Assembly: GCA_964605525.1 (NCBI GenBank) | Contig: CAZSCV010000004.1 | Span: forward strand, 38,667-102,666 | Origin: an uncultured Bdellovibrionales bacterium | GTDB taxonomy: Bacteria; Patescibacteriota; Minisyncoccia; Moranbacterales; UBA9337 | Length of the DNA: 64,000 nt | Reading direction: 5' to 3' | Part shown: piece by piece, positions 6,596-59,749 of the stretch | Position numbering within the stretch: position 1 is the stretch's first letter | Layout: each line of letters starts with the position of its first letter | Notes under the pieces: generated by a model | The model's database searches: none | Told to the model about the DNA's origin: nothing | Seen by the model: only the letters and a program-made list of their open reading frames with translations | Made by a program: the position numbers and the translations under genes

Positions 6596-6622
6596 TATGC
6601 AAAAAAATATTTTTGCATATTA
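6596..6622. promoter_or_regulatory. perfect 11-bp-arm palindrome atatgcaaaaa-aat-atttttgcatat, ~175 bp upstream of the TasA-like gene
   Basis: Seen directly in the sequence; candidate operator. Confidence 0.3.
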
Positions 6623-6753
6623 AATTAGATCGGTTTTGCCATTTGACTCCCCGCGCAATAATGGGCAACCATTTTTAGCTTTCTGCGCGGATCATAGCCT
6701 TCTAATTTTCTTTTTTATTTTGTACTCTCATTATCTCAACTGAGATTTTATAG

Positions 6754-26053: not shown

Positions 26054-26207
26054 CTTTCCGAAAAATAATAAATTTTTATTTTTACTCACGTCTTTGTGCG
26101 TATAAATCAAAAACTTTATGCCCAAACCAACCGATATTTAACAAAAAAGGAACAAAATAACCAAAAGGGACGGTTGGAAAAATAAAAATTTATTATTTTT
26201 CGGAAAG
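26054..26207. mobile_element. 154-bp element with 24-bp perfect terminal inverted repeats (copy A), 38 bp upstream of efp
   Basis: ctttccgaaaaataataaattttt … aaaaatttattatttttcggaaag; internal stem ccaaccg…cggttgg; ~88% identical to copy at 61117-61270. Confidence 0.55.
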
Positions 26208-54187: not shown

Positions 54188-55753
54188 ATGTACAAACCCG
54201 TAGTTTTAATCATTTTGGACGGATGGGGTCTTTCCAGTAACAGGCAAGGAAATGCCATTTTCAAATCCCGCAAACCGTCCGTTGACAAATTGGACCAGTA
54301 TTATCCTTCAACCACTCTCCAGGCATCCGGAATTTCCGTGGGAATTCCTTGGGGAGAATCGGGAAACAGCGAGGTCGGGCATATGACACTCGGGGCGGGA
54401 AAAATAATCTATCAAAATCTTCCTCGTATCACTTTGTCAGTCCAAGATGGATCTTTTTTTCAAAATGAAGCGTTTCTGGAAGGAATGAACAAGGTCAATC
54501 AAAACAAAAGCTCTTTGCACTTGATGGGACTTATTGGTGAAGGAGCCGTCCACTCATATTCAGAACATCTGAACGCTCTTATTGAAATGGCAAAAATTCA
54601 GAAAATAGAAAGGCTTTATTTGCACCTAATCACTGACGGTCGCGATTCATCTCCAACCTGCGGAACAAAAATTATCAAGTCTCTTCAAGAAAAATTAAGA
54701 ATGAAAGGGATTGGAAAAATTGCCTCTGTTTGCGGAAGAAATTGGACGATGGATAGAAACAACAATTGGGGGCGCATAGAAAAAGGTTACAATTTGATGA
54801 CTCGAGGAGAAGGAGAGCAAATTTCTGATCCAATCAAATATCTCCAAGATTCTTACGCCAAGGGAATTACGGATGAATATATTGAACCGGGAGTAATTAC
54901 CGAAGGAGGAAAACCTGTCGCCTTAATACAAGATGGGGACACGGTTATTTTCTTTAATTTTCGGGAAGACCGCGCCAGGCAAATAACCAGGGCTTTTACC
55001 TTGCCGGAGTTTGATGGATTTAAGCGTGAAAAACGCCTGCAATTGAATTTCGTTACCATGACAGAATATGAAAAAGATTTGCCGGTTTCCGTCGCTTTCC
55101 CGCCGGAAGAAATAAAAAATGGATTGGGAGAAATACTCAGCCAAAACAGAAAAAAACAACTGCGCATCGCGGAAACAGAAAAATATGCCCATGTTACGTA
55201 TTTTTTCAATGGAGGAAAAGAAGAACCTTGGCCGGGAGAAGACCGGGTTTTGATCCCCTCCCCGTCCGTTTCCAAATTTGATCAGGCTCCGGAAATGAGC
55301 GCTGATAAAATAACTCAAAAAGTTATTGAGGCTTTGGAATTGGAAAAATATGATTTTATTTTAATAAATTATGCCAATGCCGATATGGTCGGGCATACCG
55401 GAAATGAAGAAGCCACTATTCGCGCAGTGGAAACTGTCGACAAAAATTTGGCTGATTTGATTCCGGCTGTTCTCAAAATTGGCGGATGCCTTTTGATAAC
55501 CGCCGACCATGGAAACGCCGAGGAACTGCAAAACTTGCGCACCGGAGAAATCAACACTGAACACTCCTCCAATCCCGTTCCACTTTGGTTTGTAGCTCCC
55601 GACAATCACCATGAAGAAAAGAAAATTGATACAGGAAGAGAGTTTAATCCAGGAGGACTTCTCAGCGACATTGCGCCAACCGTCCTCAGTATTATGAAAA
55701 TTGAACAACCTAAAGAAATGAACGGCGAAAGCTTACTACCACTTCTGAAATAA
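54188..55753 (+). CDS. gpmI: 2,3-bisphosphoglycerate-independent phosphoglycerate mutase
   Basis: MYKPVVLIILDGWGLS…SGISVGIPWGESGNSEVGHMTLGAG…; start at ATG 54188. Confidence 0.9.
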   Translation: MYKPVVLIILDGWGLSSNRQGNAIFKSRKPSVDKLDQYYPSTTLQASGISVGIPWGESGNSEVGHMTLGAGKIIYQNLPRITLSVQDGSFFQNEAFLEGMNKVNQNKSSLHLMGLIGEGAVHSYSEHLNALIEMAKIQKIERLYLHLITDGRDSSPTCGTKIIKSLQEKLRMKGIGKIASVCGRNWTMDRNNNWGRIEKGYNLMTRGEGEQISDPIKYLQDSYAKGITDEYIEPGVITEGGKPVALIQDGDTVIFFNFREDRARQITRAFTLPEFDGFKREKRLQLNFVTMTEYEKDLPVSVAFPPEEIKNGLGEILSQNRKKQLRIAETEKYAHVTYFFNGGKEEPWPGEDRVLIPSPSVSKFDQAPEMSADKITQKVIEALELEKYDFILINYANADMVGHTGNEEATIRAVETVDKNLADLIPAVLKIGGCLLITADHGNAEELQNLRTGEINTEHSSNPVPLWFVAPDNHHEEKKIDTGREFNPGGLLSDIAPTVLSIMKIEQPKEMNGESLLPLLK

Positions 55754-55805
55754 TTTCATACCACCTAAAAATCAGTTCGCACAATTAATAATCACTTACT
55801 TCACG

Positions 55806-55850
55806 CAAAAAAGTTGCAAATTTATACACATAAACAAATTTGCAACTTTT
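55806..55850. terminator. bidirectional terminator (15-bp arms) between gpmI and the RT gene
   Basis: aaaagttgcaaattt-atacacataaac-aaatttgcaactttt. Confidence 0.6.
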
Positions 55851-56890
55851 TATTTTTTAATAATTCTACTGATCTTTTTCTCAATCCCCCGCCCATCACA
55901 ATGCTTCAAAACTCCCAAATACGCCTGCAAACTTTGATTAAATTCTTCTTCTGAAATCAATCCTTCTTTCAATATTTTATGATTGAGAGATAATTTCTTC
56001 ATCATCCTCCTTTTCGTTTTCGTCCGCAAGACTCGATGATGCGGCAAAACCACATAACCCAGAAAATCAATGCCTTGCCGATATTTCCTGATGATTATTT
56101 TATTTGGATGTAAATTTAATTTCAGTTCATTTTGCAAAAAATCGCCAAGTTTTCCAATTAACTTTTCTAAATGTTTTTTATCTTCCGCCATAATTATGAA
56201 ATCGTCGCAATACCGCAAATAATATTTTTCTTTCAGGATATGTTTTGCAAATTGATCGAGTTCATTTAGATAGATATTAGCAAAGAGCTGGCTGATAACA
56301 TTTCCCAATGGCAGTCCTTTTGGAAAACTGTGAATTATTCTTTCTGTAAGCCAGATCGCATTTTCGTCTCGGATCTTTCTTTTGATAAGTTTCAGTAAAA
56401 TTTCCTGATCAATCGAATCGAAAAACTTTTTGATGTCGCATTTGAGAGTGAATATTTTTTTCTTATTGTTCTTACTTGCTTTTCTGGAAAATTCTTCAAA
56501 TCTTTTTACGCCTATATGTACTCCTTTATCAATCCTGCAGGAATACGAATCAAGAATAAAATTTTTATCAAAAATCGGATAAAGAATCCTGAAAATCGCA
56601 TGATGCAAAACTCTATCTTTCACCACAGCTTTGTGTATTTTTCGCAATTTTGGATCACAAACATTAAATGAGGTATAATCGGAATGCCGATAGGTTTTGT
56701 TTTTGAGTTCTTTGTGGAGATTGAAAATATTATCTTCCAATTTAAATTCGAATTGTTGCACGTCTATCTTTTTTGTTTTTCCTCTCTTAAATTCATTCCA
56801 CGCCAAAAATAAATTTTCCAAACTAATTATTTTTTTAAAAATACTATGACAGAAAAACTCACAATTAAGACCCCCCCCCAACGCTCTCAA
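55850..56890 (-). CDS. DGR-type reverse transcriptase
   Basis: RT motifs including RYCDDFIIMAED (YxDD box) and N-terminal LENLFLAWNEFKRGK; 346 aa. Listed ORF starts at TTG; an SD-preceded ATG at 56906 is one frame off across a (G)9 tract. Confidence 0.85.
   Translation of the reverse strand: MRALGGGLNCEFFCHSIFKKIISLENLFLAWNEFKRGKTKKIDVQQFEFKLEDNIFNLHKELKNKTYRHSDYTSFNVCDPKLRKIHKAVVKDRVLHHAIFRILYPIFDKNFILDSYSCRIDKGVHIGVKRFEEFSRKASKNNKKKIFTLKCDIKKFFDSIDQEILLKLIKRKIRDENAIWLTERIIHSFPKGLPLGNVISQLFANIYLNELDQFAKHILKEKYYLRYCDDFIIMAEDKKHLEKLIGKLGDFLQNELKLNLHPNKIIIRKYRQGIDFLGYVVLPHHRVLRTKTKRRMMKKLSLNHKILKEGLISEEEFNQSLQAYLGVLKHCDGRGIEKKISRIIKK
56871..56879. repeat. homopolymeric tract C9 (G9 on the coding strand) at the 5' end of the RT gene
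   Basis: With 8 G the ATG at 56906 (AGGA SD 7 nt upstream) would be in frame with the RT; with 9 it terminates after 13 codons. Confidence 0.6.
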
Positions 56891-56948
56891 TAAAATTGTC
56901 GCGCATAAAAATATCCTAAACTATAATCAACCGAAATTATTCTCTGAA

Positions 56949-57257
56949 TTGGAAAATTTGTACAGCGATTGTTATGACCGCGTAAAAAACTTTCCCAAGC
57001 TAGACAAACATCTTCTCGGAAAAGAAATTTTAACTTTTCTTAATGAGACTCAAAAATACTCATTAACCTCGATTCACAACAATTCTTATCTTCCTCTTGC
57101 AAGTGCTAATTTTGACTTATTCAAAAGATCGATTCGCGTTGCTGTAAATAAAAAAATTATTTCTATCGGATGGTACGGATCCCATTTGGAAATAATAATT
57201 TCCATCGGAAAAGAAATTGGCAGTTGGATCAAAAAAACAAAAAGCCCGAAGTTTTAG
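56949..57257 (+). CDS. avd: Avd-like accessory protein of the DGR (TTG start inferred)
   Basis: 102-codon open frame in AT-rich DNA; CYD near the N-terminus and the basic C-terminal …IGKEIGSWIKKTK resemble Bordetella-phage bAvd (…CYDQM…, …VGRILGSWIARVNRK). Opposite strand to RT, TR and target. Confidence 0.5.
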   Translation: MENLYSDCYDRVKNFPKLDKHLLGKEILTFLNETQKYSLTSIHNNSYLPLASANFDLFKRSIRVAVNKKIISIGWYGSHLEIIISIGKEIGSWIKKTKSPKF

Positions 57258-57359
57258 AGGGCGAGGCGCAACCGGTTGTTGCTATTAGAATTGCCGGCAT
57301 TGTTGGAATTGAGGTTGAACTCGCCGCCGTTCGAATTGGCGTTAGCGACTGAACAAATT
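57245..57359 (-). repeat. DGR template repeat (TR)
   Basis: 115 bp aligned without gaps to 57684-57798 at a constant +439 offset. On the minus strand the TR carries 12 AAY codons (NCSVANANSNGGEFNLNSNNAGNSNSNNRLRLAL); every one is substituted in the VR; only one non-A difference. Confidence 0.85.
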
Positions 57360-57581
57360 AGCGTTATTCCTTCCATAGTTTCGAAAAGAAGATTACTCTA
57401 CTTTTTATAACCTATCGCTTTAGGTCTCTGTTTGGACGCTGACATAAATTGATTTTTTCTCCATCCATAGAACAACGCTGAACTTCGGGTTTTGTTATGA
57501 GGAGAGCTTCGCGTACGAATACCCTACTGAACTCATTTTTTATTTTAGCATCTTTTTTTATTTTCCAAAAATTTTGAAAAT

Positions 57582-57611
57582 AAAAAAACCAGCGCATATT
57601 TCATCGCTGGT
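57582..57611 (-). terminator. rho-independent terminator after the DGR target gene
   Basis: Minus-strand accagcgatgaaatatgcgctggt followed by tttttttatttt. Confidence 0.5.
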
Positions 57612-57657
57612 CGAAGTTTGAAAAAATTCTAATCCAAGCTCCAAGGATCCACATCCT

Positions 57658-57675
57658 TTCGTCCTAGCGGACGAA
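57658..57675 (-). promoter_or_regulatory. hairpin (7-bp stem, 4-nt loop) immediately 3' of the VR, where DGR homing hairpins sit
   Basis: ttcgtcc-tagc-ggacgaa, 9 nt past the VR end; a GC-rich IMH-like gagggcgaggcgcaacc is identical in TR and VR. Confidence 0.45.
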
Positions 57676-57683
57676 AATCTGAA

Positions 57684-57798
57684 CCCGAAGAACTAGAGGG
57701 CGAGGCGCAACCGGTAGTCGCTATCCGAAAAGCCGGCATAGCTGGAAACGAGGATGAACTCGCCGCCGCGCGAATAGGCGCTAGCGACTGAACAAACA
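57684..57798 (-). repeat. DGR variable repeat (VR) at the 3' end of the target gene
   Basis: Encodes …VCSVASAYSRGGEFILVSSYAGFSDSDYRLRLAL*; differs from the TR at adenine positions only (aat->gtt, tat, ttt, gat; aac->agc, cgc, atc, gac, tac). Confidence 0.85.
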
Positions 57799-58766
57799 GG
57801 ACCGGTATTCTTGTCCTTATGTTCAATTAAATCCCTCCTCCACTCCCAAGTATTGGGAGCAAGATACTGCTCGTCATCAGCAAAAAGCTGAGCCTGCAGT
57901 ATAATACCTTCCGCGTGAGATATAACTCTCACACCCCTAACAACCGCCGAAACATACGACCGATTGTCAAGATTAACCGGTTCACCGTTTTTATTGACGA
58001 TTTTCTGATTGGCTGGGATGTCAGCCAAATTGCAGGTAAAAATCATCTCAACCGAATCCACTTTTACAAGCGGAACCGCATTCTTTCTGAGGACCCGCGA
58101 TTCCTCCACGACCCAGTTCCTCTTAAAGGCCTTCGTGCCAATTTCATCCGGTTCAATCGGATGGCATCCTTGTAAAAGCTCGCGGAGGGTGAGTTTTGTC
58201 CAGCGATTAGTCGTCCCTGCCTCCGCCCAAATTTTGAAGCCATCTTCCTTGAGCGGTTTCATAATCCGCTCAAAGAAAAACTCGGCTTCAGTCATTCGGA
58301 CTTCAGCAGCTTCGGTCAAGGCACTTGGCGTGGCCTTGATAAGAGCATAATTGAGACAGCCTACCTCAAGCCCCGCCTTAATTGCCGGAAGCCTTTTTTC
58401 CTCAACAAAAATTTTCCCGCGGTCAATACGGAAATCTGCTCCGTAAAAACGCTGGTAGAATTTTTCCTGTTTGGCGATCTGCCCATCCAGTCCGCCGGGC
58501 AGGAATTTTTCCAGATCATTCTCCTTGAGCCACGACAAAAATTCATCGTAGTCAAGAATCTGATCAGATACTTCTTCTTCGGCGCCATAACACAACACCC
58601 GAGCAAAGTCGACAATTTGTTGGCGTTTTCCGAGGTCGTCAATGATCATTTGTTCAATATCAAATGTCCACCCCGCCTCGAACAACCGACGAAACGCCTC
58701 ACTGTGTTTGCTGTATTTTTTGATAAAATCCGCCTCTGTCATTTGGTTCGCAACGGTATTCCCCAT
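57693..58766 (-). CDS. DGR target (variable) protein with C-terminal FGE/C-type-lectin-like VR-bearing fold
   Basis: C-terminus …NTWEWRRD…SRGGEF…GFSDSDYRLRLAL matches DGR variable-protein motifs (NVWEW … RGGSW … GFRL); no signal peptide; GC above local average. Confidence 0.8.
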   Translation of the reverse strand: MGNTVANQMTEADFIKKYSKHSEAFRRLFEAGWTFDIEQMIIDDLGKRQQIVDFARVLCYGAEEEVSDQILDYDEFLSWLKENDLEKFLPGGLDGQIAKQEKFYQRFYGADFRIDRGKIFVEEKRLPAIKAGLEVGCLNYALIKATPSALTEAAEVRMTEAEFFFERIMKPLKEDGFKIWAEAGTTNRWTKLTLRELLQGCHPIEPDEIGTKAFKRNWVVEESRVLRKNAVPLVKVDSVEMIFTCNLADIPANQKIVNKNGEPVNLDNRSYVSAVVRGVRVISHAEGIILQAQLFADDEQYLAPNTWEWRRDLIEHKDKNTGPVCSVASAYSRGGEFILVSSYAGFSDSDYRLRLAL

Positions 58767-58974
58767 CGCACACCTCCCTAAAAAATTTTAAGAACAAAGA
58801 AGTCCGAAAACTTCCACCACTTCGAGCCATTCTCGAAATGATACTCAATTGAAGCACCAAATTATCATTTTGTCAAATATGAATCTCGTTTTTGGCTTAA
58901 ATAAAGGCTTTTATTAGTTTTTTCAAAGTTCACCCTTCAATTTCTGTAAAAAACTCTCACACAATACTAAAAAA

Positions 58975-59022
58975 CTTGTCATTTTGTTGCAATTGCAACT
59001 TTTTGACAAGTTTTTTTGATTT
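58975..59022 (-). terminator. terminator after clpP (nested palindrome)
   Basis: aaacttgtc…gttgcaattgcaac…gacaagttt with a minus-strand T-run. Confidence 0.5.
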
Positions 59023-59624: not shown

Positions 59625-59670
59625 ACTATTTTTAAAATTTATAACTTACACAATTAAGCAGATTCTCGAT

Positions 59671-59727
59671 TTCCTGAAAAATAATAAATTTTTGGTTTTC
59701 CGAAAAAATCATTATTTTTTTCGGAAT
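59671..59727. mobile_element. internally deleted copy (copy C) of the 154-bp TIR element, 45 bp upstream of clpP
   Basis: ttcctgaaaaataataaattttt-gg-ttttccgaaaaaatcattatttttttcggaa: both TIR-like arms without the core. Confidence 0.45.
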
Positions 59728-59749
59728 CCCCTGGGAAAAAGTCTGCCTC

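Follow-up and report, generated by a model that had tools for sequence, protein, structure and literature searches.

The window, a 64-kb stretch of DNA analysed here, very probably carries a chromosomal diversity-generating retroelement (DGR) of the Patescibacteria/CPR lineage in the published B3 layout. The cassette is ordinary for its lineage and adds one more well-resolved CPR-type element. New with respect to the CPR DGR papers covered are the predicted C-type-lectin (CLec)/FGE-like fold of its target protein and a tract of G7-G11 at the 5′ end of the reverse transcriptase (RT) gene.

Layout of the cassette and its relatives

The cassette is arranged in the order target gene with its variable repeat (VR), template repeat (TR), avd and RT. 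Target, TR and RT all lie on the minus strand and avd alone on the plus strand. The insertion site is the interval between clpP and gpmI, both housekeeping genes; nusA, ppa, tig and clpP occupy one flank, and gpmI, rny, hup and a sigma-70 gene the other. The RT, the Avd-like ORF, the two repeats and the target ORF of the original prediction were all located, with minor corrections only. The features are as follows.

55808..55851, no strand: perfect inverted repeat of 16 nt, AAAAAGTTGCAAATTT / AAATTTGCAACTTTTT, lying where the RT and gpmI genes converge
55850..56890, minus strand: RT ORF, 346 aa from TTG 56890; RVT_1 match with E 3.6e-20; motifs GLPLGNVISQ and YCDD
56865..56906, minus strand: short ATG frame, MRDNFIESVGGGS followed by a stop codon; AGGA 7 nt upstream (56914-56917)
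56871..56879, minus strand: G9 tract at the RT 5′ end; sole G/C run of at least 8 in the 64-kb window
56949..57257, plus strand: avd, 102 aa; Avd-like by Pfam, NCBIfam and PHROGs
57245..57359 (core 57245-57357), minus strand: TR, the template repeat, from repeat search and alignment with the VR
57575..57612, minus strand: terminator-like stem ACCAGCG/CGCTGGT, then U7AU4; end of the target transcript, between VR and TR
57657..57676, minus strand: hairpin TTTCGTCC-GCTA-GGACGAAA, 7 nt past the VR homology; none after the TR
57684..57713, minus strand: IMH-like VR end; GC-rich block, TAGTTC (TAAAAC in the TR), then TTCGGG common to the TR
57684..57798 (core 57684-57796), minus strand: VR, the variable repeat, 84% identical to the TR
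57693..58766, minus strand: target gene (ORF), 357 aa, ending in RLRLAL and a stop codon; CLec/FGE-like C-terminal fold predicted

The element had been called complete. Every component was indeed found, but the word needs a caveat because the G9 tract puts the RT ATG, which is preceded by a Shine-Dalgarno sequence, out of frame, and the TTG start drawn for the RT is without an obvious ribosome-binding site. Both the RT and the avd ORFs begin at TTG as originally drawn.

Assignment of the 102-aa ORF to the Avd family was borne out by end-to-end alignment to bAvd/DGR-Avd models in three independent libraries. The ORF matched Pfam bAvd over profile positions 8-106 of 107 (E 9.7e-9; 36.1 bits, below the cutoff of 40), NCBIfam DivGenRetAVD (E 9.6e-10; 38.7 bits, below the cutoff of 80) and PHROG 3206, "Avd protein of DGR" (E 3e-10). 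The final 13 nt of avd are shared with the TR 3′ end. In 10 relatives, opposite-strand Avd ORFs are found in the same place, and 8 of these exceed the Pfam cutoff.

The orientation of avd had been regarded as atypical. This view has to be dropped, since the same layout is present in the 10 relatives and corresponds to the B3 architecture, TR-(avd)-RT with avd reversed, which accounts for 90% of CPR DGRs (Wu et al. 2018, PMC5758913). DGR clade 2 is confined to Patescibacteria, and its targets are without recognisable domains (Roux et al., 10.1101/2020.04.01.020958). When compared with the CPR DGRs of these two studies, the window cassette has the same order and orientation, with no difference in core anatomy. 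It is likewise chromosomal among housekeeping genes, and its target has no recognisable sequence domain or evident membrane segment.

Relatives of the RT in GTDB genomes were mostly from the same group (13 of 16 from Patescibacteria/CPR, 2 from Gammaproteobacteria and 1 without a phylum label). The RT relatives share 47-71% identity, and nearly all are from Patescibacteria MAGs. From these relatives and from synteny, the window itself is provisionally placed in Patescibacteria. The VR-TR-(avd)-RT layout with adenine-specific TR/VR pairs was seen in 10 related Patescibacteria loci. Two of the related loci, L014 and L031, are 99.15% identical and differ at 30 positions; of these, none is in the TR and 21 are in the VR, where every one coincides with a TR adenine. 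This confinement of the VR differences to TR adenines points to natural DGR activity in the clade. Within the population of the window itself, no VR variation was detected across three assemblies (window, L001 and L002), and the TR was identical too.

The perfect inverted repeat at 55808..55851 is, judging from its position, probably a bidirectional terminator that closes the cassette. On local folding, the terminator-like stem at 57575..57612 had an energy of -11.7 kcal/mol (z -2.1). Promoter and terminator scans gave scores no higher than the shuffled background.

Template and variable repeats and the target protein

The core shared by TR and VR is 113 nt long (offset 439) with 18 mismatches. 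The original prediction of adenine-specific divergence with one non-A difference was upheld on realignment and tabulation of the mismatches by TR base, as 17 of the 18 are at A. On the target strand, 17 of the 29 adenines in the TR core are changed in the VR compared to 1 of the 84 non-A positions (Fisher p=1.3e-11). The lone non-A mismatch, T->G at TR 57287, is synonymous (TCT->TCG). A TR pattern with every A made N-degenerate matched only the TR and the VR in the 64-kb window and had no match in shuffled sequences; the window thus contains one VR.

The VR takes in ~34 codons at the end of the target together with the stop codon, and extends 9 nt past it. The TR has 11 in-register AAY codons and a TAA at the position of the stop. 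All 12 AAY codons were said to be altered. The 11 within the ORF are all recoded (N->S,Y,R,I,V,S,Y,F,D,D,Y), but the twelfth (AAC->TTC) lies past the stop codon, where the TR reads TAA AAC and the VR TAG TTC. The substitution listed first, N->V, is actually ATT->GTT at the fuzzy 5′ edge of the repeat.

An identical GC-rich, IMH-like block had been noted at the VR end, and it was recovered as 18 nt common to TR and VR (57696-57713, CGGTTGCGCCTCGCCCTC). The layout of this end fits the description of IMH/IMH* by Wu et al. 2018 (PMC5758913). The 7-bp/4-nt hairpin reported right after the VR is also present; at 57657-57676 the 4-nt loop is closed by a stem of up to 8 bp by complementarity, 7 of them paired by RNAfold, and the local fold has an energy of -22.8 kcal/mol (z -1.9). 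The Bordetella phage DGR has a counterpart of this VR-only hairpin in the GC-rich inverted repeat that follows its IMH (PMC5758913).

At the sequence level, the target had no match to any Pfam family, among them FGE-sulfatase and DUF1566, and none to CLec/FGE proteins. No signal peptide, membrane segment or lipoprotein/secretion signal was evident on inspection. The structure predicted for its C-terminus matches CLec/FGE proteins, including the solved DGR variable proteins TvpA, Mtd and TaqVP, in agreement with the fold proposed earlier. In this model the variable residues are displayed on a predicted C-type-lectin/FGE-like fold. In the alignment of the target family, hypervariable columns fall exactly at the AAY positions and the scaffold is conserved. 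The N-terminal part, when folded alone, was not modelled with confidence (pLDDT 64), and for the remainder of the protein, relatives were detected only within its own family. One of the "unrecognisable" CPR target families is now assigned, by prediction, to the C-type-lectin/FGE-like fold.

The FGE-type CLec proteins TvpA of Treponema denticola and TaqVP of Thermus aquaticus offer a closer comparison. The target shares with them an NxWEW-type motif (NTWEW) and the location of the variable residues in the last ~35 residues. It differs from them in being without a Pfam FGE-sulfatase or DUF1566 match and without an evident lipoprotein/secretion signal.

Reverse transcriptase and the proposed retrohoming steps

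Among solved structures, the best relative of the RT is bRT of the Bordetella phage DGR (8ub7; E 4.6e-43, 151 bits), and the best group II intron RT reaches 67 bits. In the motif alignment to bRT, GLPLGNVISQ corresponds to GIPIGSLTSQ (LGxxxSQ) and RYCDD to RYMDD. The RT also matched phrog_1423 (E 1e-107), and more than 6,900 homologues were found. The enzyme is therefore of the DGR type as first proposed, with bRT as best match and the DGR motifs LGxxxSQ and YCDD present.

It is extremely unlikely that the locus is no DGR and that an ordinary duplication lies beside an RT of the group II intron, retron or defence type. The best NCBIfam match is a group II intron RT/maturase model, TIGR04416 (147.8 bits), which could be taken in favour of such an origin, but this score is far under the cutoff of 300. 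The retron St85 (71.7 against a cutoff of 235), Drt3a (72.6 against 200) and Drt2 (57.1 against 390) models are below their family cutoffs as well, and neither intron nor retron RNA was detected in 55700-59000. The lead of bRT over the group II intron RTs among solved relatives (84 bits), the adenine-specific mismatches (p=1.3e-11) and the adjoining avd gene all argue against this possibility.

The biochemical steps of retrohoming at the window locus are proposed by analogy with the phage BPP-1. The TR would be transcribed from the minus strand, presumably as its own short transcript. An RT-Avd complex would copy the TR RNA, faithfully at C, G and U and with random bases opposite A, and the cDNA would be exchanged for the VR at the target gene's 3′ end. 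Directionality would come from the GC-rich IMH-like VR end together with the VR-specific hairpin. In each round the 11 AAY-templated positions could be recoded, giving ~15^11, or roughly 9e12, protein variants. The recoded positions would lie on the predicted ligand-binding C-type-lectin/FGE-like fold, with the scaffold end RLRLAL invariant.

The DGR of Bordetella phage BPP-1 (mtd-avd-TR-brt) has many features in common with the window cassette. The RT is homologous to bRT, with LGxxxSQ and Y(M/C)DD in both, and both have an Avd partner, adenine-specific divergence via AAY codons, a VR at the C-terminus of a CLec fold, and a GC-rich IMH-like block followed by a VR-only hairpin. In contrast to the phage-borne BPP-1 element, the window DGR is cellular, its target is no tail fibre, and its avd, encoded on the opposite strand, separates TR from RT. 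In BPP-1 the ~140-nt TR-brt spacer RNA primes cDNA synthesis, whereas the window has no obvious counterpart and its TR 3′ flank is antisense to avd. Most relatives of the window locus carry, unlike BPP-1, a strong hairpin and a T-run directly after the TR.

The G tract at the 5′ end of the RT gene

The tract is kept as G7-G11 at the same site in most relatives, in more than 20 distinct loci, and the sole G/C run of at least 8 within each locus is the RT G tract. With G9, as in the window, the Shine-Dalgarno-preceded ATG at 56906 is out of the RT frame; with G8, as in the close relative L036, it is in frame. The short ATG frame at 56865..56906 has its homologue in MRDNFVRSLGGGINSH, the RT N-terminus of this relative (L036/P0052), which is in frame. 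The RT ORF itself is open for 346 codons from TTG 56890, and its in-frame TTGs are without an obvious ribosome-binding site. With respect to the upstream ATG, the RT is in frame at 7 loci and out of frame at 13, and at most of the latter the ATG frame meets a stop two codons past the tract. A G11 tract in L014 against G10 in L031 is the lone indel between these near-identical sequences. The present activity state of the window copy hinges on translation of the RT across G9.

We tentatively suggest that the conserved G7-G11 tract could switch DGR activity on and off stochastically in this Patescibacteria clade, with the window (G9) off and L036 (G8) on. Replication slippage, transcriptional slippage or a +1 ribosomal shift may set the ATG frame into the RT, and the mutagenic enzyme may then be made in only a fraction of cells or transcripts. 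Such a switch could act on both RT and Avd, as the divergent avd gene has its 5′ end directly beside the tract.

Two rival readings of the cassette are both rather doubtful. The DGR may now be switched off or decaying, with the VR a frozen record of past retrohoming. At G9, translation from ATG 56906 ends after 13 codons (MRDNFIESVGGGS and a stop), so little or no RT would be made, and the same ATG continues in frame into the RT in the G8 relative. The VR and G9 are unchanged in the three assemblies of the window population. At a further G9 locus, L042-L046, where the ATG is likewise out of frame, five samples are 100% identical to one another, VR flank included, and the consensus length of the tract is constant in these five assemblies as in the three of the window population. 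Decay is seen in related loci, as L004 has no TR, L041 retains a target with no adjacent TR, avd or RT, and an internal G10 in L017 is the site of a frameshift. Against loss of function, the RT ORF past the tract is fully open with catalytic motifs intact, and only one non-A mismatch is present in 113 nt, which dates the last homing as recent relative to neutral decay. Moreover, in-frame TTGs are available at 56890 and at 56881, where the last base of the codon is the first G of the tract, and G9 is able to slip back to G8.

These TTGs equally serve the other reading, a somewhat improbable one, by which the tract has no effect on expression, RT synthesis starts at TTG 56890 or 56881, the DGR is constitutively competent and the upstream ATG is merely an antisense shadow of nearby sequence. 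All loci keep the RT frame open across the tract, and about 12 of 120 homologues are called with a start "MGGG..." at the tract. The L014/L030/L031 subclade has an ATG downstream of the tract and so carries the tract in the 5′ UTR. The in-frame to out-of-frame ratio of 7:13 relative to the upstream ATG is also near the random expectation of 1:2. However, the TTGs have no Shine-Dalgarno sequence and the ATG has AGGA 7 nt upstream, and the peptide MRDNFIESV read from the ATG has homology to the N-termini of P0052 and P0060, which are in frame. A tract without effect would also leave unexplained the upkeep of a hypermutable G7-G11 run, GGG being 15% of Gly codons here.

If true, gating of RT translation by the tract would be a simple, testable regulatory mechanism by which cells restrain or time DGR mutagenesis, and would join contingency-locus phase variation to mutagenic retrohoming, two classic sources of diversity. 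No mention of the RT G tract was found in the papers covered, among them Wu et al. 2018 and Roux et al.

Campylobacter and Neisseria provide homopolymer contingency loci for comparison, in the form of poly-G phase variation. A further parallel is the prfB-type +1 frameshift cassette, and both serve as analogies only. The RT tract resembles contingency loci in being a G7-G11 run in the 5′ coding part whose length and frame vary between strains. It departs from them in that one subclade has the tract in the 5′ UTR and its consensus length is stable in two populations.

The cassette and its adenine-directed repeat pair

The region is a genuine, essentially complete diversity-generating retroelement (DGR) of the CPR architecture B3, clade 2. 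The reverse transcriptase (RT) gene, avd, template repeat (TR), variable repeat (VR) and target gene are present just as the original prediction had them. The elements of the cassette are:

55850-56890, minus strand, RT open reading frame
56871-56879, minus strand, run of nine G's, 5' end of the RT gene
56949-57257, plus strand, avd open reading frame, 102 aa
57245-57357, minus strand, TR (113-nt core)
57569-57542, minus strand, weak candidate TR promoter, TTTGGA-16-TAAAAT
57575-57612, terminator-like stem with U-run, between target and TR
57684-57796, minus strand, VR, in the 3' end of the 357-aa target gene

A repeat search carried out on the plus strand of the cassette region returned the TR and VR as one long direct repeat (offset 439, 84% identical). 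On the minus (target) strand the core carries 18 mismatches, 17 of them at TR adenines. When the re-aligned mismatches were tabulated by TR base, 17 of 29 adenines were changed as compared to one of 84 other bases (Fisher p=1.3e-11), and the predicted adenine specificity is thus upheld. The single non-A difference, also as predicted, is a synonymous T->G at TR 57287 (TCT->TCG). The TR contains 11 AAY codons in register with the target ORF and all 11 specify another residue in the VR (N->S,Y,R,I,V,S,Y,F,D,D,Y). Twelve recoded Asn codons had been claimed; 11 lie inside the ORF, but the twelfth, though real, lies past the stop (TR TAA AAC, VR TAG TTC), and the supposed first change, N->V, is ATT->GTT at the ragged 5' edge of the repeat. 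The eleven AAY positions alone would allow about 15^11, or 9e12, variants. An A->N-degenerate TR pattern matched only two sites in the 64 kb, the TR and the VR, and none in shuffled sequence, and therefore there is one VR in the window; no further VR was detected with this pattern or with the GC-rich block at the VR end.

This GC-rich block of 18 nt is identical in the TR. It is followed by TAGTTC in the VR and TAAAAC in the TR, and then by TTCGGG in both. Seven nt beyond the VR is a hairpin, TTTCGTCC-GCTA-GGACGAAA, which has no counterpart at the TR. The homology past the stop, with A-only differences (57691-57695 compared with 57252-57256), could reflect either mutagenesis or fixed differences between IMH and IMH*, the 3'-end elements. 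Since the 3'-tail mismatches in most of the relatives inspected also sit at TR adenines, mutagenesis is favoured as the source of the three post-stop differences. Copying of this stretch would make even the stop codon mutable, with 46 more codons translated on read-through.

Most relatives have a strong hairpin and T-run directly 3' of the TR, at a point that is also the end of the convergent avd gene; the element is weak in the window. Its position points to a TR RNA made as a short transcript of its own, with a bidirectional terminator at the end. Consensus scans of promoters and terminators gave counts no higher than the shuffled background, and an Rfam scan of the cassette gave sub-threshold noise only.

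The RT ORF matches RVT_1. Among solved proteins its nearest match is the Bordetella phage DGR RT, bRT (8ub7, E 4.6e-43, 151 bits), as compared to 67 bits for the best group II intron RT, in agreement with the predicted DGR assignment. The motifs GLPLGNVISQ (DGR-typical) and RYCDD align to GIPIGSLTSQ and RYMDD of bRT. The NCBIfam models for group II intron, retron and Drt types were all far under their cutoffs. Almost the whole length of the ORF predicted to be Avd-like is covered by alignments to three models, Pfam bAvd, NCBIfam DivGenRetAVD and the PHROG 'Avd protein of DGR'; its scores are below both curated cutoffs. The target matched no family in Pfam, NCBIfam or PHROGs. It has 39 homologues, none of them named, which when aligned share a conserved scaffold (…NTWEWRRD…SVA.A.S.G.EF.L.S..AD.S….RLRLAL); the hypervariable columns coincide exactly with the AAY positions. 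The family profile had no match among PDB sequences, and a Pfam search of all 36 family members yielded weak Pox_D5 noise only. The N-terminal part of the target, modelled alone, reached a pLDDT of 64.

Going by the Bordetella phage system (summarised in PMC5758913), the TR would be transcribed from the minus strand and copied by RT-Avd into cDNA with random bases placed opposite A. The cDNA would then take the place of the VR, with the IMH-like end and the hairpin found only at the VR as guides. Given a separate TR transcript, RT expression would be driven from the short divergent avd-RT region.

Lineage, genomic context and footprint of activity

The cassette lies between clpP and gpmI, with nusA, ppa, tig, rny, hup and a sigma-70 gene nearby; it is chromosomal and not in a prophage. 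Relatives of the RT were found in 16 GTDB genomes at 47-71% identity, with one more distant at 27%, and 13 of the 16 are labelled Patescibacteria/CPR. Ten of these loci carry a TR/VR pair with adenine-only mismatches in the same arrangement. In ten loci the opposite-strand ORF between TR and RT is a bAvd protein, in eight of them above the Pfam cutoff. The orientation of avd had been called atypical. The same layout in ten relatives makes it a clade character, and it is published as architecture B3, TR-(avd)-RT, which accounts for 90% of CPR DGRs in Wu et al. 2018 and is nearly absent elsewhere (PMC5758913). Thus, the interpretation as a DGR is supported, but its layout is typical for the lineage. 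'DGR clade 2' of Roux et al. is cellular and restricted to Patescibacteria, and its targets are typically without transmembrane or recognisable domains (10.1101/2020.04.01.020958), a description that the target in the window fits.

The cassette sequence recurs in two ENA metagenome assemblies, with no difference in VR, TR or G tract between the consensus sequences of the three assemblies of this population. Evidence of activity comes from a related pair: L014, a Paceibacterota MAG in GTDB, and L031, a contig of a JGI metagenome. Over 3,545 bp they share 99.15% identity. The VR, 127 nt long (L014 2512-2638), accounts for 21 of the 30 differences between them, every one opposite a TR adenine; the TR accounts for none. 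This is the footprint that mutagenic retrohoming in nature would be expected to leave.

Some related loci are organised differently. In L004 (3598-4939), nothing separates the 3' end of the target from avd, a TR/VR pair could not be detected and the C-terminus of the target is aberrant; this cassette seems to have degenerated, perhaps by recombination between VR and TR. The closest target homologue, in L041 (3983-5500), has the same synteny, ppa-tig-clpP-target. This locus retains the VR, hairpin and terminator without an adjacent TR, avd or RT, and a PaaX-like gene comes next. L042-L046 are five contigs, each from a separate sample and study, that match at 100% over 2.2-3.3 kb of a related DGR and have an IS200-like Y1 transposase gene downstream of the RT.

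A G tract at the 5' end of the RT gene

While the DGR itself is of an already known type, the poly-G tract is the part worth pursuing. The nine G's form the only G/C run of at least 8 in the window. An ATG at 56906 is preceded by AGGA 7 nt upstream, and its frame (56865-56906) reads MRDNFIESVGGGS and ends at a stop two codons past the tract. G9 thus throws the Shine-Dalgarno-preceded ATG out of frame with the RT. In L036, the closest relative, the ATGCGCGACAATTTT start is the same but the tract is G8, and the frame continues straight into the RT (MRDNFVRSLGGGINSH…). A tract of G7-G11 is present at the same site in more than 20 distinct loci (L003-L008, L010, L011, L013, L014, L016, L019, L029-L031, L035-L040, L042), in each as the sole G/C run of at least 8. 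With respect to the upstream ATG, 7 loci are in frame, 11 (window included) are at +1 nt and 2 at +2 nt, the loci being few and non-independent. The sole indel between L014 and L031 is in the tract, G11 and G10 respectively (L014 3451). In L017 (5540-5605, identical to L034) the RT begins without a G tract, and a G10 lies instead within the gene, in an insertion before the LPIGNITSQ motif; across this G10 the frame shifts by one extra nt.

A sequencing artefact was rejected as the origin of the tract, which lies internally, keeps its syntenic place in many independent studies and recurs in replicate assemblies. A conserved Gly-Gly-Gly peptide was likewise rejected: just 15% of Gly codons are GGG, the run does not keep one codon phase from locus to locus, and in one subclade the ATG is 3' of the tract, which is non-coding there. 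The tract may gate RT synthesis, by phase variation or by recoding (slippage or a +1 frameshift). About 45 of the 120 closest database RT proteins are called N-terminally truncated, without the conserved IFEKIISLENLF, as would be expected if their tract were out of frame. Counting against rapid switching, tract length is constant in consensus among the three assemblies of the window population and the five samples with L042-L046 (G9, out of frame). The data also allow a nucleic-acid element of unspecified role, or an irrelevant tract with RT initiation at TTG. In a literature search of incomplete coverage, no paper on DGRs with homopolymer tracts or phase variation was found.

Other elements in the window

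Upstream of the target gene, the palindrome GTTGCAATTGCAAC (core 58986-58999) lies in a 24+24-nt inverted repeat (58969-59016). Three copies flank the target in L041 (3697, 5293, 6255), and the palindrome may act as an operator or as a terminator. Further elements were noted:

6619-6711, minus strand, c-di-GMP-II-GAG riboswitch aptamer, 43.1 bits, just above the gathering score of 40
37382-37613, minus strand, group I catalytic intron (Rfam RF00028, 86 bits), in a tRNA cluster between tRNA-Met and tRNA-Val
61117-61270 and 26054-26207, MITE-like repeat of ~155 nt, 90% identical, with 24-nt terminal inverted repeats CTTTCCGAAAAATAATAAATTTTT
59668-59728, inverted repeat related to the MITE-like element, between clpP and tig
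63412-63525, 34-nt tandem repeat, 3.4 copies, 90% matches, upstream of nusA
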